DNA from: a virus
Lineage: Duplodnaviria > Heunggongvirae > Uroviricota > Caudoviricetes
DNA: 6,375 nucleotides
Strand: one strand, 5' to 3'
Virus record (IMG/VR): IMGVR_UViG_2728369593_000005
Location: 1 to 6,375 of that record
Of this stretch, positions 1 to 6,375 are shown in pieces. Numbering within the stretch: position 1 is the first letter of the stretch; each line of letters opens with the position of its first letter. The translations under genes and the position numbers were made by a program. The notes below the pieces were generated by a model that saw only the letters and a list, made by a program, of their open reading frames with translations, ran no database searches and was not told where the DNA came from.

Positions 1-2
1 TG

Positions 3-122
3 GTGATTTCTGATAACCAGATTTACCGTGAATGGGGAATTACTAGCGAAAACGAACACCGATTCATGGTCTTTGGAAAGGTCTTAATCAGTCAGTCGCA
101 AACCCTTAAGAGACATAATTAA
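3..122 (+). CDS. 3' end (39 codons plus stop) of an upstream prophage gene, product unknown; 5' part outside window
   Basis: Only frame 3 is open from the window edge (frames 1 and 2 hit stops within 12 nt). Translation ...VISDNQIYREWGITSENEHRFMVFGKVLISQSQTLKRHN*, stop TAA at 120-122, followed 20 nt later by a textbook intrinsic terminator. Confidence 0.45.
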   Translation: MISDNQIYREWGITSENEHRFMVFGKVLISQSQTLKRHN

Positions 123-140
123 CCTCAATATCCTTCCATC

Positions 141-162
141 GGCCACCGAAAGGTGGCTTTTT
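141..162 (+). terminator. Rho-independent terminator (GCCACC / GAAA loop / GGTGGC followed by T5)
   Basis: 6-bp GC stem 142-147/152-157 with a GAAA tetraloop, immediately followed by TTTTT at 158-162, directly downstream of the stop at 120-122. Confidence 0.75.
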
Positions 163-175
163 ATTACCTATCAAT

Positions 176-226
176 TTGCATATCCCGCAAATATCACTTG
201 CATATCTCGCAATTTAATTTTATCTT
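176..226. promoter_or_regulatory. Two operator-like imperfect palindromes TTGCATATC(C/T)CGCAA 22 bp apart, overlapping a candidate sigma70 promoter
   Basis: TTGCATATCCCGCAA at 176-190 and TTGCATATCTCGCAA at 198-212, each of the form TTGC-N7-GCAA, with a centre-to-centre spacing of 22 bp (about two helical turns). The second site coincides with a -35-like TTGCAT (198-203), a 17-bp spacer and a -10-like TATCTT (221-226). Confidence 0.4.
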
Positions 227-397
227 TTGTTCCAGACCAACTACAGGATTACAACAAAATCTGGTTGCAACACGGTGCATGTGTCGTAAGCAGTCAGTAA
301 ATGTCAAAAACGAACAGGCAGGACGCCCACGAAGTAGCCGCCGGTGGCGTATGAATGACCGGATGATTCGTTAAATACTATGTGTAAGAGAGCGCAA

Positions 398-600
398 ATG
401 AACCGTTATTTCACATGCTCGTTTTGTGGCGCAAACGAGCTGCAGGCAAAAAAATCATCGCCAAAGGCGGAAAAGATGAAGTTGCTATCTGCTCTGAGTG
501 CGTAGTCTTGTGTGTCGGGGCATTAATCAATATCAGCACAACTATTCGGTTCACACCAAATGAGAATGCGCCTTTAGATGCGCGGAAATCTGGAGGTTAA
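398..600 (+). CDS. Small ClpX-type C4 zinc-finger protein (about 67 aa if read through); reading frame interrupted by a -1 shift at an A7 tract (448-454), so either a pseudogene, a programmed frameshift or a sequence error
   Basis: ATG at 398 gives MNRYFTCSFCGANELQAKK and then runs out of frame to a stop at 503-505. The -1 frame (supplied ORF 415..600) continues ...KKIIAKGGKDEVAICSECVVLCVGAL.... Joined at the A run, the product has CSFCG...KIIAG...ICxECVxLC, which closely mirrors the ClpX N-terminal zinc-binding motif (CSFCGK...KLIAGP...YICDECVDLC) as I remember it. Neither half alone has all four Cys ligands. Confidence 0.6.
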
Positions 601-689
601 AGAACAAAATGAAAGTCCAGATTTTAAACAATAACTGTGAAGTCGTTTGGGCGTAAAACATGACCGCGCGTAGACCAAGGGAGGAAAAA

Positions 690-866
690 GTGGGAATAGT
701 TAGAAATCAAGCAGATATATTGAAAATCAGCTCTGAATTGCTTGGAGTTTTGAAAAGTGAGCTCACCGCACATGGCATCGAGCCCACTGACGAAAATTTA
801 AGTTGGGTTTTGTCGATTATTCAACAATCACTCAAGCCCAGCCTCAGCAAACTTTTTATCGAGTAG
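690..866 (+). CDS. Hypothetical small prophage protein (58 aa from GTG 690; alternative ATG at 660 gives 68 aa)
   Basis: Strong Shine-Dalgarno AAGGGAGG at 676-683, 6 nt before GTG 690. Product VGIVRNQADILKISSELLGVLKSELTAHGIEPTDENLSWVLSIIQQSLKPSLSKLFIE. Same orientation as the rest of the prophage operon. No homology recognised. Confidence 0.4.
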   Translation: MGIVRNQADILKISSELLGVLKSELTAHGIEPTDENLSWVLSIIQQSLKPSLSKLFIE

Positions 867-1019
867 TGCTTCGAACTTATCGTAAAGCTTGCTTATGTCG
901 TCTATCGGGTTTTCTGACGTACTGTAATTTTTATCTGATGTCATGGCAGCAGTCTGATATGCAGTGTGAGTCTTAACCGATAGTTGGAATAAATAAAGAA
1001 TTTTTTCTTCTTTGGTCAT
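828..1019 (-). CDS. Hypothetical small protein (63 aa), antisense to the surrounding operon and overlapping the 3' end of the 690..866 ORF by 39 nt
   Basis: Internal ATG (complement of 1017-1019) preceded by AAGGA with a 7-nt spacer; the supplied ORF 828..1061 has no Shine-Dalgarno at its first ATG. Product MTKEEKILYLFQLSVKTHTAYQTAAMTSDKNYSTSENPIDDISKLYDKFEALLDKKFAEAGLE. AT-rich segment. Confidence 0.35.
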   Translation of the reverse strand: MTKEEKILYLFQLSVKTHTAYQTAAMTSDKNYSTSENPIDDISKLYDKFEALLDKKFAEAGLE

Positions 1020-1099
1020 AACTATTTCCTTCTTGGCTATATGAAAACACCAAGATACCACCGAGCCTGAAGTGGTGAAAAGACAGGCACATAACAGCT

Positions 1100-1440
1100 A
1101 AGTATTTTCAACCAGAGAGAATCCTTAGCGTTGTGGTGAATGCGGCTCAGCGCACGCGGGTTAAGGTTGAGGCTGACAGTCGACCTTCTGTGGATACCCA
1201 CCCGCCTGGTGTGCAACCTTCGCCAGGCACCGGGAGGCACCCGGCACCACAACTTTATGCTGTGTGTAGTCTTGGCGGTACCAGCTTATACCCTTGCTTC
1301 CGGCTGGTACCGTCCTTTTTACAAAACAGAGAAGAGCATCACCGGACGACGGGCTCATAACCCAATCCATCCGGGCGGCAGTCACCGCAGGTGTTCTTCT
1401 CTGTTTTGTGGAGAAACTAACCGACCTTGCAGGGTCGATA
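1100..1440 (+). other. GC-rich, highly self-complementary, apparently non-coding element (candidate structured RNA or DNA site)
   Basis: Abrupt change from the AT-rich 600-1060 segment to a GC-rich one. ORFs are open in several frames on both strands but have Arg/Pro/Cys/His/Trp-rich, non-protein-like composition. Multiple stems are present, including GCCTGG 1203-1208 / CCAGGC 1223-1228, GGCACC three times at 1226-1248, and a perfect 10-bp stem at 1276-1312. Confidence 0.3.
1276..1320 (+). terminator. Strong hairpin (perfect 10-bp stem CGGTACCAGC/GCTGGTACCG, 17-nt loop) followed by T5; possible intrinsic terminator or RNA 3' end
   Basis: Arms at 1276-1285 and 1303-1312 are exact reverse complements; TCC then TTTTT at 1316-1320. 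Confidence 0.4.
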
Positions 1441-1457
1441 TGATGAGGAGCAGCAAA

Positions 1458-1820
1458 ATGGCTAGCGAACGCAGTACTGATGTGCAGGCATTTATCGGGG
1501 AGCTGGACGGCGGCGTATTTGAAACCAAAATCGGCGCAGTTCTCAGTGAAGTCGCTTCCGGTGTGATGAACACGAAAACCAAAGGTAAGGTCTCGCTCAA
1601 CCTGGAAATCGAACCGTTTGATGAGAACCGAGTGAAAATCAAACACAAACTCTCATATGTTCGCCCGACTAACCGCGGGAAAATTTCCGAAGAAGACACC
1701 ACCGAAACGCCGATGTATGTCAATCGCGGTGGTCGCCTGACTATTCTGCAGGAAGAACAGGGACAGTTACTGACTCTTGCCGGTGAACCTGACGGAAAAC
1801 TCCGCGCAGCAGGTCGTTAA
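1458..1820 (+). CDS. yfdP: Uncharacterised prophage protein YfdP (120 aa)
   Basis: GAGGAG Shine-Dalgarno at 1445-1450, 7 nt before ATG 1458. The 120-aa product (MASERSTDVQAFIGELDGG...) matches the size and my recollection of K-12 YfdP. The upstream in-frame extension to 1140 is rejected as coding. Confidence 0.8.
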   Translation: MASERSTDVQAFIGELDGGVFETKIGAVLSEVASGVMNTKTKGKVSLNLEIEPFDENRVKIKHKLSYVRPTNRGKISEEDTTETPMYVNRGGRLTILQEEQGQLLTLAGEPDGKLRAAGR

Positions 1821-1885
1821 TATCGTTTTTAATTAACTGATTATTTATCTCATCACTGAATATCTTTATATAGTGAGGACTTATT

Positions 1886-2710
1886 ATGTCTCAGAACTTA
1901 GACGCAACCGCAATTAATCAAATCCATGCCCTTATTTCTGCTCAGGGTGTTAATGAAATTATCAGTAAGATTGGTGCCGATGCTGTGGCATTGCCTGAGA
2001 ATTTCCGCATTCATGATCTGGAAAAATTTAATTTAAATCGCTTCCGTTTCCGTGGTGCGCTTTCCACTGCCAGCATCGATGACTTTACCCGTTATTCTAA
2101 AGATCTTGCAGATGAAGGCACCCGCTGCTTTATCGATGCTGATAATATGCGTGCCGTCAGTGTGCTTAACCTGGGTACTATTGATGAACCAGGTCACGCA
2201 GATAACACCGCCACACTCAAACTGAAAAAGACAGCACCGTTCTCTGCTCTGTTGTCTGTTAACGGCGAGCGTAACTCCCAGAAGTCACTAGCAGAATGGA
2301 TTGAAGACTGGGCCGACTACCTTGTGGGCTTTGATGCGAATGGTGACGCCATTCAGGCAACAAAAGCGGCTGCGGCAGTCCGTAAAATCACGATTGAAGC
2401 AAACCAGACCGCTGATTTTGAAGATAATGACTTCAGCGGCAAACGCTCCCTGATGGAGTCTGTCGAAGCGAAGACCAAAGACATTATGCCAGTGGCATTT
2501 GAATTTAAATGCGTTCCGTTTGAAGGCCTGAAAGAACGTCCGTTTAAATTACGCCTCAGCATTATCACTGGCGATCGTCCGGTACTGGTTCTGCGCATTA
2601 TTCAGCTGGAGGCGGTGCAGGAAGAAATGGCTAACGAATTTCGTGATCTGCTTGTTGAGAAATTCAAAGACAGCAAAGTAGAAACCTTTATTGGTACTTT
2701 CACCGCCTGA
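1886..2710 (+). CDS. yfdQ: Uncharacterised prophage protein YfdQ (274 aa; I recall this family as DUF2303)
   Basis: 274-aa ORF with GAGGA 6 nt before the ATG; protein-like composition; size and sequence match my recollection of K-12 YfdQ. Confidence 0.85.
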
Positions 2711-2722
2711 TTTCATTACTGC

Positions 2723-2744
2723 AAATGCCCCTGCGGGGGCATTT
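2723..2744 (+). terminator. Hairpin AAATGCCCC-TGCG-GGGGCATTT between yfdQ and yfdR (weak terminator or attenuator; T tract only 3 nt)
   Basis: Perfect 9-bp inverted repeat 2723-2731/2736-2744 with a 4-nt loop, 13 nt after the yfdQ stop. Confidence 0.3.
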
Positions 2745-2838
2745 ATGGAAACATAATTTACTCAATAATCGCCGGATGGTGAGAGATTCCTTTTACCAGA
2801 ATTCAACGCGGTGCAGCGCATATAAAGTGGAGAACAAA

Positions 2839-3375
2839 ATGTCATTTATTAAAACTTTTTCCGGGAAGCATTTTTATTATGACAAGATAAATAAAGACGA
2901 CATCGAGATTAACGATATCGCAGTTTCCCTTTCAAATATCTGTCGCTTTGCAGGACATCTTTCACACTTCTACAGCGTCGCCCAACATGCGGTGCTTTGC
3001 AGCCAGCTGGTGCCGCAGGAATTTGCTTTTGAAGCGTTAATGCATGATGCAACAGAAGCATATTGCCAGGACATTCCCGCACCACTGAAACGACTTCTTC
3101 CTGACTATAAACAAATGGAAGAAAAAATAGACGCCGTAATCCGTGAGAAATACGGGTTACCCCCAGTTATGAGCACGCCAGTGAAATATGCCGATCTCAT
3201 CATGCTGGCAACCGAACGCCGCGATCTCGGGCTTGATGATGGCTCTTTCTGGCCTGTACTGGAAGGCATCCCGGCAACAGAGATGTTCAAAGTGATTCCA
3301 CTGGCACCAGGCCATGCCTACGGGATGTTTATGGAACGCTTTAACGAGTTATCGGAGTTACGCAAATGCGCATGA
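2839..3375 (+). CDS. yfdR: HD-domain 5'-deoxynucleotidase YfdR (178 aa)
   Basis: Product MSFIKTFSGKHFYYDKINKDD...HDATEAYCQDIP... carries HD-type metal-ligand motifs and matches my memory of K-12 YfdR (178 aa). GGAG sits 9 nt before ATG 2839. The supplied ORF start at 2725 lies inside the upstream hairpin and lacks a Shine-Dalgarno. Confidence 0.85.
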   Translation: MSFIKTFSGKHFYYDKINKDDIEINDIAVSLSNICRFAGHLSHFYSVAQHAVLCSQLVPQEFAFEALMHDATEAYCQDIPAPLKRLLPDYKQMEEKIDAVIREKYGLPPVMSTPVKYADLIMLATERRDLGLDDGSFWPVLEGIPATEMFKVIPLAPGHAYGMFMERFNELSELRKCA

Positions 3376-3728
3376 ATGTTTTCGAAATGGAAGGGTTTCT
3401 TCGCGGGAAATGTGTACCGCGAGATCTGAAAGTAAACGAAACAAATGCTGAATACCTAGTACGTAAATTCGATGCGCTTGAAGCTAAATGTACAGCACAG
3501 GAAAACAAAATAATACCAGTGTCAACTGAACTGCCACCAGCAAATGAAAGTGTTCTGTTATTCGATGCTAACGGAGAAGGCTGGCTAATTGGCTGGCGTT
3601 CTCTCTGGTACACCTGGGGACAAAAAGAAACCGGAGAATGGCAGTGGACATTTCAGGTCGGGGACCTTGAAAACGTCAATATCACTCACTGGGCAGTAAT
3701 GCCAAAAGCACCGGAGAATAAGAAATGA
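3366..3728 (+). CDS. yfdS: DUF551-family prophage protein YfdS (120 aa)
   Basis: C-terminal ...THWAVMPKAPE is the signature end of the DUF551 family as I recall it. The start overlaps the yfdR stop within ATGCGCATGA. Size matches K-12 YfdS. Confidence 0.8.
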   Translation: MRMNVFEMEGFLRGKCVPRDLKVNETNAEYLVRKFDALEAKCTAQENKIIPVSTELPPANESVLLFDANGEGWLIGWRSLWYTWGQKETGEWQWTFQVGDLENVNITHWAVMPKAPENKK

Positions 3729-4039
3729 GCATAATGACCACTTTTACCGACAAAGAACTGATTAAAGAAATTAAAGAGCGTATCAGCAGCCTTGACGTGC
3801 GAGACGATATTGAGCGCCGTGCTTATGAAATCGCACTCCTATCTCTGGAAGTAGAACCAGATGAACGCGAAGCTTATGAATTATTCATGGAAAAGCGTTT
3901 CGGTGACTTAGTAGATCGTCGGAGAGCAAAAAACGGCGATAACGAATACATGGCATGGGATATGACTCTCGGTTGGATCGTCTGGCAGCAACGAGCTGGT
4001 ATCCATTTTTCAACAATGTCACAACAAGAGGTGAAATAA
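3725..4039 (+). CDS. yfdT: Uncharacterised prophage protein YfdT (104 aa; alternative start at 3734 gives 101 aa)
   Basis: ATG overlaps the yfdS stop (ATGA at 3725-3728), suggesting translational coupling. Acidic, protein-like composition; size consistent with K-12 YfdT (101 aa). Confidence 0.75.
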   Translation: MSIMTTFTDKELIKEIKERISSLDVRDDIERRAYEIALLSLEVEPDEREAYELFMEKRFGDLVDRRRAKNGDNEYMAWDMTLGWIVWQQRAGIHFSTMSQQEVK

Positions 4040-4135
4040 TAGAGCCATACAGCCTCACACTCGATGAGGCCTGTCAGTTTCTTAAAATATCCTGATCTAC
4101 CATCGCCGTCATAGAGCGTATTTTTATTACCTGAT

Positions 4136-4151
4136 TTGCAGGTTCGATTCC
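4136..4151. other. tRNA T-arm-like fragment (TTGCAGGTTCGATTCC) upstream of torI; not a complete tRNA
   Basis: Contains the canonical T-loop motif GGTTCGATTCC preceded by GCAGG, but the complementary T-stem 3' strand CCTGC does not follow (sequence continues CTATTCGG). The matching 3' half is found about 290 bp downstream at 4445-4459. Confidence 0.5.
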
Positions 4152-4170
4152 CTATTCGGAGATAGCACTC

Positions 4171-4371
4171 ATGCAACACGAACTACAGCCTGATTCACTG
4201 GTTGATTTGAAATTCATCATGGCTGATACTGGCTTCGGTAAGACCTTCATCTATGACCGGATTAAGTCCGGCGACCTGCCTAAAGCCAAAGTTATCCACG
4301 GACGAGCAAGATGGTTATATCGTGACCATTGTGAATTCAAAAATAAGCTCTTAAGCCGCGCCAATGGGTAA
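4171..4371 (+). CDS. torI: TorI: prophage excisionase (recombination directionality factor) and inhibitor of the TorR response regulator
   Basis: The 66-aa product MQHELQPDSLVDLKFIMADTGFGKTFIYDRIKSGDLPKAKVIHGRARWLYRDHCEFKNKLLSRANG matches my recollection of TorI and has the AlpA/Xis-type helix-turn-helix pattern. GGAG 9 nt before the ATG. Sits immediately inside attR, as expected for an excisionase. Confidence 0.88.
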   Translation: MQHELQPDSLVDLKFIMADTGFGKTFIYDRIKSGDLPKAKVIHGRARWLYRDHCEFKNKLLSRANG

Positions 4372-4420
4372 AATAGCGGGTAAAATATTTTTCACATCTA
4401 AAAAACACCATTCCAATCAA

Positions 4421-4459
4421 TCCCCTGCAACCTCAAGTAGATGTCTGCAGGGGACACCA
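4421..4459. other. Prophage attR: tRNA 3'-end core (CTGCAGGGGACACCA, 4445-4459) with a flanking 9-bp inverted repeat
   Basis: 4445-4459 is the T-stem 3' strand, acceptor 3' strand, discriminator and CCA of a tRNA, and is consistent with my recollection of the argW 3' end. TCCCCTGCA at 4421-4429 is the exact reverse complement of TGCAGGGGA at 4446-4454, as expected for integrase core-type sites around a crossover region. Confidence 0.6.
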
Positions 4460-4845
4460 GATACCCTTCAAACGATATCTACCTTCACCCCGTAAAAGAT
4501 AAGTTAGGCAGCACATTTGCCCTATCTACTCATTTTTCCTGCAACAGGTTGAAATCTCAACACGGTCAGAAAACGCTGATGACTAAACAGCCCTGGGCCG
4601 GGCGATGTAACCATCACACACAATCCTGATCGCGAAATATGGCGTGACTTGATACTTCACTCCACAATGCTTTCCTTGATGAATTCGCAGGCCCGTGATA
4701 CACGGGACAGGTCGCTGAATTACGACAATGCCCTGGAAATCAGCGAGCCGTGTATCCGGAGTACATTTGAGCGACTGTACCAGAACATGAATGAGGCGTT
4801 TGGATTAGGCGATTATTAGCAGGGCTAAGCATTTTGGTATTATTA

Positions 4846-4889
4846 TTTTCCGGTTGAGGGATATAGAGCTATCGACAACAACCGGAAAA
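4846..4889. terminator. Perfect 11-bp inverted repeat (TTTTCCGGTTG / CAACCGGAAAA, 22-nt loop) 10 nt downstream of the cscB stop; candidate cscB terminator
   Basis: Arms at 4846-4856 and 4879-4889 are exact reverse complements. The T/A runs are part of the stem rather than a free 3' U tract, so terminator function is uncertain. Confidence 0.35.
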
Positions 4890-4898
4890 AGTTTACGT

Positions 4899-6146
4899 TT
4901 ATATTGCTGAAGGTACTGGCGTTTCCATCACTATTTGCTCACGTTTTTTACTCAGGAAGAAAATGCCAAATAGCAACATCAGGCAGACAATACCCGAAAT
5001 TGCGAAAAAAACCGTCTGGTAGCCTGCGTGGTCAAAGAGTATCCCAGTCGGCGTTGAAAGCAGCACAATCCCCAACGAACTGGCAATTTGAAAACCAATC
5101 AGAAAGATCGTCGACGACAGGCGCTTATCAAAATTTGCCACGCTGTATTTGAAGACGGATATGACACAAAGTGGAACCTCAATGGCATGTAACAGCTTCA
5201 CTAATGAAATAATCCAGGGGTTAACGAATAGCGCGCAGGAAAGGATACGCAACGCCATAATCACAACACCGATAAGTAATGCATTTTTTGGCCCTACCCG
5301 ATTCACAAAGAAAGGAATAATCGCCATGCACAGCGCTTCGAGTACCACCTGGAATGAGTTGAGATAACCATACAGGCGCGTTCCTACATCGTGTGATTCG
5401 AATAAACCTGCATAAAAGACAGGAAAGAGTTGTTGATCAAAAATGTTATAGAAAGACCACGTCCCCACAATAAATATGACGAAAACCCAGAAGTTTCGAT
5501 CCTTGAAAACTGCGATAAAATCCTCTTTTTTTACCCCTCCCGCATCCGCCGCTATGCACTGGTGATCCTTATCTTTAAAACGCATGTTGATCATCATAAA
5601 TACAGCGCCAAATAGCGAGACCAACCAGAAGTTGATATGGGGACTGATACTAAAAAATATACCGGCAAAGAACGCGCCAATAGCATAGCCAAAAGATCCC
5701 CAGGCGCGCGCTGTTCCATATTCGAAATGAAAATTTCGCGCCATTTTTTCGGTGAAGCTGTCAAGCAAACCGCATCCCGCCAGATACCCCAGGCCAAAAA
5801 AGAGCGCCCCCAGAATTAGACCTGCAGAAAAATTGCTTTGCAGTAACGGTTCATAAACGTAAATCATAAACGGTCCGGTCAAGACCAGAATGAAACTCAT
5901 ACACCAGATGAGCGGTTTCTTCAGACCGAGTTTATCCTGAACGATGCCGTAGAACATCATAAATAGAATGCTGGTAAACTGGTTGACCGAATAAAGTGTA
6001 CCTAATTCCGTCCCTGTTAATCCTAGATGTCCTTTCAGCCAAATAGCGTATAATGACCACCACAGCGACCAGGAAATAAAAAAGAGAAATGAGTAACTGG
6101 ATGCAAAACGATAGTACGCATTTCTGAATGGAATATTCAGTGCCAT
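4899..6146 (-). CDS. cscB: Sucrose:H+ symporter CscB (oligosaccharide:H+ symporter family within the MFS, LacY-like; 415 aa)
   Basis: 415-aa hydrophobic multi-pass ORF. The sequence (MALNIPFRNAYYRFASSYSFLFF...) matches my recollection of E. coli CscB and is clearly LacY-like. It lies immediately downstream of a fructokinase gene on the same strand, as in the csc locus. Confidence 0.9.
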   Translation of the reverse strand: MALNIPFRNAYYRFASSYSFLFFISWSLWWSLYAIWLKGHLGLTGTELGTLYSVNQFTSILFMMFYGIVQDKLGLKKPLIWCMSFILVLTGPFMIYVYEPLLQSNFSAGLILGALFFGLGYLAGCGLLDSFTEKMARNFHFEYGTARAWGSFGYAIGAFFAGIFFSISPHINFWLVSLFGAVFMMINMRFKDKDHQCIAADAGGVKKEDFIAVFKDRNFWVFVIFIVGTWSFYNIFDQQLFPVFYAGLFESHDVGTRLYGYLNSFQVVLEALCMAIIPFFVNRVGPKNALLIGVVIMALRILSCALFVNPWIISLVKLLHAIEVPLCVISVFKYSVANFDKRLSSTIFLIGFQIASSLGIVLLSTPTGILFDHAGYQTVFFAISGIVCLMLLFGIFFLSKKREQIVMETPVPSAI

Positions 6147-6207
6147 AATTACCTGCCTGTCGTTAAAAAATTCATGTCCTATTTAGAGATAAGAGCGGCC
6201 TCGCCGT

Positions 6208-6375
6208 TTACTTCTCACTTTCCAGTTCTTGTCGACATGGCAGCGCTGTCATTGCCCCTTTCGCTGTTACTGCAAGCGCTCCGCAACGTTGAGCGAGATC
6301 GATAATTCGTCGCATTTCTCTCTCATCTGTAGATAACCCCGTAGAGGACAGACCTGTGAGTAACCCCGTAATAAC
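6208..6375 (-). CDS. cscK: Fructokinase CscK, 3' end only (55 codons plus stop); remainder beyond window edge
   Basis: Reverse-complement frame is open from the window edge to TAA (complement of 6208-6210). It translates to ...DLAQRCGALAVTAKGAMTALPCRQELESEK*, a typical PfkB-family sugar-kinase C-terminus. Position directly upstream of cscB fits cscK. Confidence 0.75.
   Translation of the reverse strand, partial: VITGLLTGLSSTGLSTDEREMRRIIDLAQRCGALAVTAKGAMTALPCRQELESEK

Follow-up and report, generated by a model that had tools for sequence, protein, structure and literature searches.

The window, the whole 6,375-nucleotide (nt) stretch of DNA analyzed here (positions 1 to 6,375 of IMG/VR virus record IMGVR_UViG_2728369593_000005), is the early-left (pL-type) arm of a lambdoid prophage of the SfV/KplE1(CPS-53)/e14 type. 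It runs from the end of a cI-like repressor gene, through two operators with a pL-like promoter and a series of small open reading frames (ORFs), to the structured element that is the subject of this report, and continues through yfdP, yfdQ, yfdR, yfdS, yfdT, and torI into chromosomal cscB (Table 1). The region 1097–1320 of the element is a divergent type-2 member of the known STnc100 RNA family and not a new class. A preliminary description of the window had proposed a structured non-coding RNA ending at the terminator at 1276–1320, either a prophage small RNA or a cis-acting leader of yfdP–yfdT, but had left its class unassigned. The proposal is supported by Rfam matching, by covariation, and by the lack of a conserved reading frame, and the class can now be given as the STnc100/PasD family of prophage small RNAs, here joined to a DicF-like 3′ module.

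The interval bears every sequence feature of the preliminary description at the position given there. It is GC-rich, as described previously, with a GC content of 0.52–0.66 over 1100–1400 as compared with 0.32–0.46 upstream. ORFs are open on both strands (1133–1360 and 1140–1820 on the plus strand, 1161–1646 and 1037–1252 on the minus strand), and yfdP has its own Shine-Dalgarno sequence, GAGGAG at 1444–1449, 8 nt before the ATG at 1458. The perfect 10-bp stem is formed by CGGTACCAGC at 1276–1285 and GCTGGTACCG at 1303–1312 and is followed by TTTTT at 1316–1320; the stem as a whole reaches 12 bp (1274–1285/1303–1314). In 340 nt of sequence, ∼0.006 perfect inverted repeats of 10 bp, with arms no more than 20 nt apart, would be expected by chance. 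The stem-rich character of the interval was confirmed by folding: RNA from 1097 to 1323 folds at −95.2 kcal/mol (z = −4.4, equaled by 0 of 200 shuffled sequences), and RNA from 1316 to 1470 folds at −64.1 kcal/mol (z = −6.4, equaled by no shuffled sequence). The three copies of GGCACC (1226–1231, 1236–1241, and 1243–1248) are present as reported, but it had been missed that they belong to a 3′ core that is invariant in a known RNA family. The several short stems also exist, but had not been recognized as one multi-helix fold with a pseudoknot, and a second element, the 25-bp hairpin 1316–1340/1390–1414 that accounts for most of the later half of the interval, had been overlooked.

Scanned against Rfam with a permissive E limit of 1, the window gave a near-threshold match to STnc100 (RF02076) exactly over 1100–1323, full-length over model positions 1–206 (43.4 bits, E = 4.2e-7). 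The SfV and e14 copies score 39.5 and 29.2 bits, respectively, with the same model. The only other match was a weak one to DicF, and a known riboswitch or ribozyme was therefore rejected as a candidate. The 22-nt 3′ core of the family, CACCGGGAGGCACCCGGCACCA, is present exactly at 1228–1249 and comprises helix P5 with its loop AGGCA and the 3′ strand of helix P1. P5 is the invariant CCGGG-AGGCA-CCCGG hairpin of the family, and the three GGCACC copies map to the end of P4, to the loop and stem of P5, and to the 3′ strand of P1. At the other end of the core, 1135–1157 reads GGUGAAU-GCGGC-UCAGC-GC-A-CGC, in which all five pairs of P2 form and the loop fits the UNNGC pattern. The terminator stem begins 25 nt after the 22-mer (21 nt after P1), a conserved position that agrees with the family mode of 20–40 nt after the 22-mer.

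The fold is borne out by comparison of homologues, a check that the preliminary description had proposed. An alignment of the window with the copies in SfV, e14, ST64B, sal3, and phiES15 and with one metagenomic relative (designated alignment A1) is 93.2% paired under the full model, as compared with 43–50% when the partners are slid, and 14 pairs are changed on both sides, a number reached by 0 of 500 shuffles. Five pairs of the terminator stem likewise change on both sides among homologues. Among 196 unique elements, P1 pairs 5–8 covary (UA/CG/AU, GC/AU), and P5 pair 3 is GC in 140, UA in 54, and GU in 2, with no mispairs. The Rfam model RF02076 carries no pseudoknot annotation, and the pseudoknot was defined in this analysis; it occurs in 57 distinct complementary sequence classes across the family (for example AGUUAA/UUAACU, CCAGUC/GACUGG, CUGGUGU/ACACCGG, and GUUCCAGCAG/UUGCUGGAGU), and the observed complementarity was matched in 0 of 10000 permutations. 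In phiES15 the pseudoknot reads AAGGCUG/CAGCCUU, a compensatory change relative to the window. The single-sequence fold also shows a local hairpin at 1163–1170/1180–1187; this was rejected, since it competes with the pseudoknot and is poorly kept in ST64B. The invariant unpaired bases together with the pseudoknot suggest that the core binds a specific conserved macromolecule of the host or phage.

The type-2 variant differs from type 1 in P2, which reads GCGGC...GC-A-CGC rather than CCCCC...GG-N-GGG; three of the P2 pairs in the window are G-C in place of the C-G of type 1. Because the search patterns that used 5′ motifs preset the GGUGAAU junction and parts of P2, the invariance of these parts carries weight only in the sets found by the 3′ core. 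Among 223 elements found by the 3′ core alone, a P2 register with the bulge at position 13 is 90–97% paired, with exchanges of CG for GC or UA at three pairs, as compared with only 64–70% pairing at three pairs in the register of the Rfam model. The score of the window is low largely because the latter register treats type-2 pairs as mismatches, and type-2 members in general fall below the gathering score because of this ill-fitting register and the lack of the pseudoknot.

Viral contigs were scanned in three ways, with the 22-nt 3′ core and in two scans with 5′ motifs. The 22-nt core is exact in at least 120 viral contigs, with 34 flank clusters that do not align with the window. When elements were found by the type-1 5′ motif alone, the 3′ core was exact in 77 of 116 unique elements and had one mismatch in 35 of 116; type-1 relatives score 57–148 bits for STnc100. 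When one genome per species was scanned with the 3′ hairpin, members were identified in many Enterobacterales genera, among them Escherichia, Salmonella, Citrobacter, Klebsiella, Enterobacter, Kosakonia, Pantoea, Erwinia, and Rahnella; GC-rich actinobacteria gave chance matches in which the 5′ half is missing. Several hundred relatives in phages and Enterobacterales share a common architecture of P1, GGUGAAU, bulged P2, pseudoknot, P4, and P5, followed by a terminator or a gene start. Approximately 40% of family members have a terminator 20–40 nt after the core, and most of the others have a Shine-Dalgarno sequence and a start codon. The 22-nt core remains identical, and pairing is kept by compensation, across many genera, including the functional phages SfV, SfII, SfIV, and ST64B.

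The coordinates of the helices and of the neighboring features are collected in Table 1. A RefSeq locus 99.5% identical to the window has the same gene order and extends into the integrase gene. The order repressor, element, yfdP or kil, and then xis and int is also found in SfV, ST64B, 118970_sal3, and phiES15, and in SfV, e14, ST64B, sal3, and phiES15 the element lies 3′ of a cI-like repressor and 5′ of yfdP, kil, or xis. Of 5426 complete Escherichia coli genomes, 2786 carry a copy that is at least 90% identical. The pL-like promoter near the operators is the likely source of transcription into the element. Among the small ORFs, one at 380–600 with a ClpX-type C4 zinc finger is broken into frames 380–505 and 415–600 at an A-run at ∼449–456; the second piece matches Pfam zf-C4_ClpX (21.7 bits), and the ORF is probably a frameshifted early-left gene. 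BLAST blocks from other prophage contexts start at ∼1054–1058, within the recurrent motif GATACCACCGAGCCTGAAGTGGTGAAAAGACAGGCAC that forms the left edge of the mobile module. The same motif occurs 5′ of other type-2 cores (L204, L256, and L249) and ∼190 nt upstream of DicF in the Qin-like locus L169 (∼1830–1875, minus strand). The extra 5′ hairpin (1097–1129) is not conserved in ST64B or phiES15. A separate observation concerns the SfV-like right-hand immunity region, where C4 antisense RNA and isrK are adjacent (82 and 64 bits; L004 SfV 2194–2395, also L201 and L058); this pair is a P1/P7-type ant-immunity module with no relation to the STnc100-type element.

Table 1. Coordinates of the features of the window
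Feature	Position	Strand	Remarks
C terminus of LexA-family cI-like repressor	3–122		
Repressor terminator	141–158		
Two operators, TTGCATATC(C/T)CGCAA	176–190 and 199–213		Form TTGC-N7-GCAA
pL-like promoter, TTGCAT-17-TATCTT	In 176–213 operator region		
Small ORFs	Up to ∼1060		
Recurrent motif GATACCACCGAGCCTGAAGTGGTGAAAAGACAGGCAC	1052–1096	+	Left edge of mobile module
Structured element of interest	1100–1440		
5′ hairpin, 6+6 bp	1097–1129	+	Minimum free energy (MFE) fold, inverted repeat; window/SfV/e14 subfamily only
STnc100-type core, type 2, 124 nt	1130–1253	+	
P1 closing helix, 9 bp	1130–1138/1245–1253		
Junction AAU	1139–1141		
P2	1142–1146/1152–1153+1155–1157		Loop UCAGC, bulged A1154
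P3	1158–1161/1200–1203		
Pseudoknot, 7 bp	1163–1169/1214–1220	+	AAGGUUG with CAACCUU in P4 loop
P4	1205–1211/1221–1227		
P5	1230–1234/1240–1244		Loop AGGCA
Single-stranded linker, (A)UGCUGUGUGUAGUCUU	1254–1273	+	Unpaired in MFE fold; counterpart of 5′ part of DicF
Intrinsic terminator	1274–1320	+	12-bp stem 1274–1285/1303–1314, 17-nt loop, U5 at 1316–1320
Long hairpin	1316–1414	+	25-bp stem 1316–1340/1390–1414, two small apical hairpins; fold, inverted repeat
Small hairpin just upstream of yfdP ribosome-binding site	1422–1437	+	MFE fold; only partly conserved
yfdP	1458–1820		
yfdQ, yfdR, yfdS, yfdT, then torI (excisionase)	torI 4171–4371		
Chromosomal cscB	4899–6146	−	

The part of the element that follows the core resembles DicF. 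The linker is conserved in e14, ST64B, phiES15, and L083 despite the unrelated replacement terminator stems that follow it, and the sequence UGCUGUGUGUAGUCUU is a candidate seed and/or RNase E entry site. The Rfam DicF model (RF00039) matches the window at 1261–1315 with 19.7 bits, which does not reach the cut-off of 48 bits, and the e14 copy with 28.5 bits; canonical DicF scores 72.5 bits and intermediate variants in the dicF slot score 42.8 bits. In Qin-like loci, canonical DicF lies directly 5′ of a type-2 STnc100 core, and dicB (Pfam DicB, 137 bits) follows 30–40 nt after the core. Some Qin-like dicF slots hold variants whose 5′ part is identical to 1256–1277 of the window and whose hairpins are near those of the e14 and window terminators. 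The segment 1254–1320 aligns closely to the dicF-slot variants in L192, L199, and L224, and the chimeric L168 combines a window-like 5′ part with the canonical DicF hairpin and so forms a bridge to canonical DicF; the direct likeness of the window to canonical DicF is confined to UUGGCGGUA-CAG. A graded series of dicF-slot sequences appears to link the two modules, in each of which a short unpaired 5′ stretch leads into a terminator stem that starts with UUGGCGGUA. The placement is also DicF-like, past the immunity repressor within a lambdoid prophage's early-left operon: the repressor C terminus (3–122) and the operators (176–213) are followed by the element (1097–1320) with its own Rho-independent terminator and by yfdP to torI. 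The differences from DicF of the Qin dicB operon are in the candidate seed (UGCUGUGUGUAGUCUU in the window and UUUCUGGUGACGUUU in DicF), in the stem and loop of the terminator, and in the order of the modules, because the core precedes the DicF-like module here and follows DicF in Qin.

In the Qin-like locus L169 (1358–1616, minus strand), and also in L192 and L201, the gap between dicF and dicB is taken up by a type-2 core that lacks a terminator and whose P1 measures 23 bp; it runs from the U-tract of DicF to within ∼35 nt of the dicB start codon. Upstream of the dicF slot, L192, L198, and L201 have a core-deletion form, GGUUGUGAAUAACAAC, in which P1 of the window is retained and the core is replaced by a short loop; in L179 (minus strand, from ∼4648) only the 5′ strand of P1 and P2 are left. 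Since such natural core-deletion forms exist, the STnc100 core behaves as a module that can be inserted or deleted.

The stem of the long hairpin begins inside the U-tract of the terminator. The hairpin is kept in SfV, e14, ST64B, and sal3 (94.7% paired, with one double change), and L083 has, in the corresponding position, an equally large hairpin whose sequence is unrelated. Four such hairpins fold at z = −4.7 to −8.2, that of the window at −8.2. In Qin-like loci the slot directly after the DicF U-tract is taken by the 23-bp extended P1 of the type-2 core. The long hairpin may be a site of double-strand-specific (RNase III-type) processing on read-through transcripts. Two papers on RNase III mapping gave no detail on a site just 3′ of DicF.

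The element can be compared with several phage RNAs. The 6S RNA of phage lambda and StxS are terminated pR′-tR′ leader RNAs that can moonlight as small RNAs. Type-1 copies of STnc100 with a strong σ70 promoter, followed by a terminator or by lysis genes, resemble such transcripts, whereas the window copy is early-left, has no adjacent promoter, and lies before yfdP–xis–int rather than before lysis genes. About 20 of 112 type-1 copies have the promoter TTGACA-17/18-TAAATT, a near-consensus σ70 promoter with a transcription start 3 nt before GGUGAAU. These copies are just upstream of holin and endolysin genes, often in tandem arrays by phage tRNA genes, and a stricter positional promoter scan of the family found promoters only 5′ of type-1 copies and none before type-2 copies. 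Tandem arrays of three to five bona fide STnc100 copies were observed in L013 (2265–3380), L021 (342–1038), L060 (4349–5513), and L029 (1702–2340).

Classical STnc100 copies, including EcOnc27/sRNA103, and the related PasD1 and PasD2 have in common with the window the GGUGAAU junction, P2, a pseudoknotted middle part, and the 22-nt core CACCGGGAGGCACCCGGCACCA; in each case P1 closes the fold, a linker and intrinsic terminator come next, and the host element is a lambdoid prophage of Enterobacterales. The window copy differs in its longer variable region and extra 5′ hairpin, in its early-left location with no promoter of its own (many classical copies are in a late-operon leader, and some have the promoter and start site described above), and in its DicF-like 3′ module in place of the usual terminator, GCCCCUC...GAGGGGC. 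STnc100 copies are expressed in enterohemorrhagic E. coli, one of them verified by northern blot (PMC5331693), and EcOnc27, an RNA bound by Hfq, overlaps the STnc100 copy that lies downstream of stx2B (PMC12711010). PasD1 and PasD2, small RNAs from Hfq RIL-seq, are structural relatives of STnc100 (bioRxiv 10.64898/2026.05.13.724894). One STnc100 copy has been found in outer-membrane vesicles (PMC12370729).

The interpretation that we favor, with a probability of about 0.6, is a composite one that comprises a pL-driven prophage small RNA ending at 1316–1320, a cis-acting transcription barrier, and processing at the long hairpin. The region 1097–1320 would then be a non-coding RNA gene of two joined modules, the STnc100-family core and the DicF-like linker and terminator. 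RNA polymerase that is unmodified for antitermination would stop at 1316–1320 and free an RNA of ∼190–225 nt, which might be trimmed by RNase E in the AU-rich linker, by analogy with DicF; the trimmed RNA would act in trans with Hfq through the conserved UGCUGUGUGUAGUCUU. In cis, the terminator would constitute a tL-like barrier that leaves yfdP–yfdT–xis–int silent unless it is read through. Upon read-through, the U-tract would be pulled into the 25-bp hairpin at 1316–1414, and processing of this hairpin would separate the small RNA from the yfdP mRNA.

Several observations weigh against this interpretation. The STnc100 score of 43.4 bits is under the gathering cut-off of 47 bits. Many type-2 relatives have no terminator and are 5′ leaders directly before genes such as dicB, and the core therefore need not belong to a trans-acting small RNA. 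The U-tail has only five U residues, which is short for strong Hfq binding. In a crude duplex test (RNAduplex against ftsZ from −80 to +60), the window RNA showed no DicF-like pairing with ftsZ (z = +1.2, as compared with −1.4 for DicF). No σ70 promoter was found before the element in a consensus scan of 1–2000; transcription of the element is therefore most likely from pL, ∼900 nt upstream, and the RNA may be scarce in a repressed lysogen. Finally, the published RNase III cut in the dicB operon is upstream of DicF and not at the position equivalent to the long hairpin, so that cleavage at 1316–1414 by RNase III is an inference.

Two alternatives would deny the element a function as RNA. That it encodes a protein, either a YmfH-like ORF at 1133–1360 or an N-terminal extension of YfdP at 1140–1457, is hardly credible. 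Long frames are open, and RefSeq annotates "protein YmfH" on the e14 copy and a hypothetical protein on the window, but the homologues in alignment A1 differ by single-nucleotide insertions and deletions, the phiES15 copy has stop codons in all six frames within the core, and RefSeq itself flags the ORF over the element as frameshifted in the 99.5% identical genome. No open frame across the element matches Pfam or NCBIfam, and the reading frame of YmfH or of an extended YfdP is not conserved among the homologues. The putative ORFs would also have to traverse a strong intrinsic terminator, the substitutions compensate RNA pairing, and yfdP has its own Shine-Dalgarno sequence and ATG. Protein coding was rejected on account of the insertions and deletions, the six-frame stops, and the lack of a protein family, and the conserved coding frame that would have spoken against the preliminary description was not found. 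The same description had also considered a remnant of another element. A decaying, functionless remnant of an ancestral element is very improbable; the prophage is partly degraded, as seen in the frameshifted ClpX-zinc-finger ORF, and core deletion derivatives exist in L179 and the variant-B loci, but the identity of the 22-nt core, the compensatory pairing across genera and functional phages, and the presence of the element in 2786 of 5426 E. coli genomes do not support decay.

The other alternatives accept a functional RNA and differ in what it does. A purely cis-acting leader cassette, in which the core, terminator, and long hairpin control the amount of pL transcription arriving at yfdP–xis–int and affect mRNA processing or stability with no role in trans, is possible, if on balance unlikely. 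It is consistent with the ∼60% of the family that have no terminator, lie 30–40 nt before a start codon, and have P1 extended to ∼23 bp, with the type-2 core between dicF and dicB, with a long hairpin that is kept in structure after the terminator despite unrelated sequence, and with the lack of a promoter of the element's own. Against it, the linker 1254–1273, kept from Escherichia to Salmonella and Cronobacter, recurs unchanged in dicF-slot RNAs, a pattern typical of a seed, and STnc100/PasD relatives accumulate as discrete Hfq-associated RNAs (PMC5331693, PMC12711010, bioRxiv 10.64898/2026.05.13.724894). A further proposal, which we regard as quite unlikely, is that the STnc100-type core is more than the body of a small RNA, namely an autonomous pseudoknotted RNA domain of riboswitch size placed in cis before intrinsic terminators or gene starts, where it binds a conserved factor to set termination, processing, or translation; the core occurs in early-left operons, in the dicF–dicB interval, and in tandem arrays in late-operon leaders. 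If this were true, RNA polymerase, a termination or antitermination factor, or a nuclease would be candidate partners. The case of a domain that binds RNA polymerase or another factor and alters termination downstream, as does the put RNA of phage HK022 or a riboswitch aptamer, is improbable. The core has the size of a riboswitch, multiple helices, a pseudoknot, an invariant unpaired GAAU, the UNNGC loop, and the AGGCA loop; it stands 20–40 nt before an intrinsic terminator in ∼40% of members; and it occurs inside antiterminated phage operons, including the tandem arrays between late promoters and lysis genes. Like put, it is a structured nascent RNA in the pL operon of a lambdoid phage, upstream of terminators. 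However, put RNA differs in sequence and in fold, being ∼74 nt long and built of two stems and a triple helix (PMC9378689), and HK022 has no match to the STnc100 model (20000–40751) and no 22-mer core at three mismatches or fewer (27000–40751). STnc100 members terminate rather than antiterminate, and the RNAs accumulate in terminated form (PMC5331693). Where a copy has a strong, constitutive-looking promoter, a terminator and then lysis genes follow, and an autonomous antiterminator there would be lethal; no switch geometry is apparent because P1 does not overlap the terminator. A put-like antiterminator was accordingly rejected as an identification and is retained only as a functional analogy of low probability. 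The composite interpretation of a small RNA joined to a cis-acting barrier remains the one that we prefer.

The gene ymfH of the K-12 prophage e14 is 92% identical to the window element, and its ORF (L001 4079–4390) begins in the 5′ strand of P1 and spans the core, terminator, and long hairpin. Because of this identity with a non-coding element, ymfH is, as judged from sequence, very probably an RNA element that was mis-annotated as an ORF. A literature search for ymfH transcripts found only a mention in iModulon/operon data and a retron-trigger screen, in which over-expression of ymfH was reported to trigger RcaT, the toxin of retron-Sen2 (bioRxiv 10.1101/2020.06.22.160242). This triggering may be an effect of the RNA and not of a protein, as would be the case if the core were an autonomous domain.

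The STnc100/PasD kind of prophage RNA and the genomic logic of DicF in the dicB operon were known already. The type-2 variant, the terminator-less leader forms, the covarying pseudoknot, the corrected register of P2, the linkage of STnc100 and DicF modules, and the reinterpretation of ymfH as RNA are new. In place of a widespread annotation as protein, ymfH and the "hypothetical protein" before yfdP, found in about half of the complete E. coli genomes, are very probably an RNA element. The value of these findings is mainly for specialists. The STnc100 family is considerably broader than the Rfam model captures, and STnc100-type cores are physically and evolutionarily tied to DicF-type small RNAs in the early-left operons of prophages. 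The findings are relevant to the control of xis/int and of toxic early genes in cryptic prophages and to the origin of phage small RNAs by the shuffling of modules.

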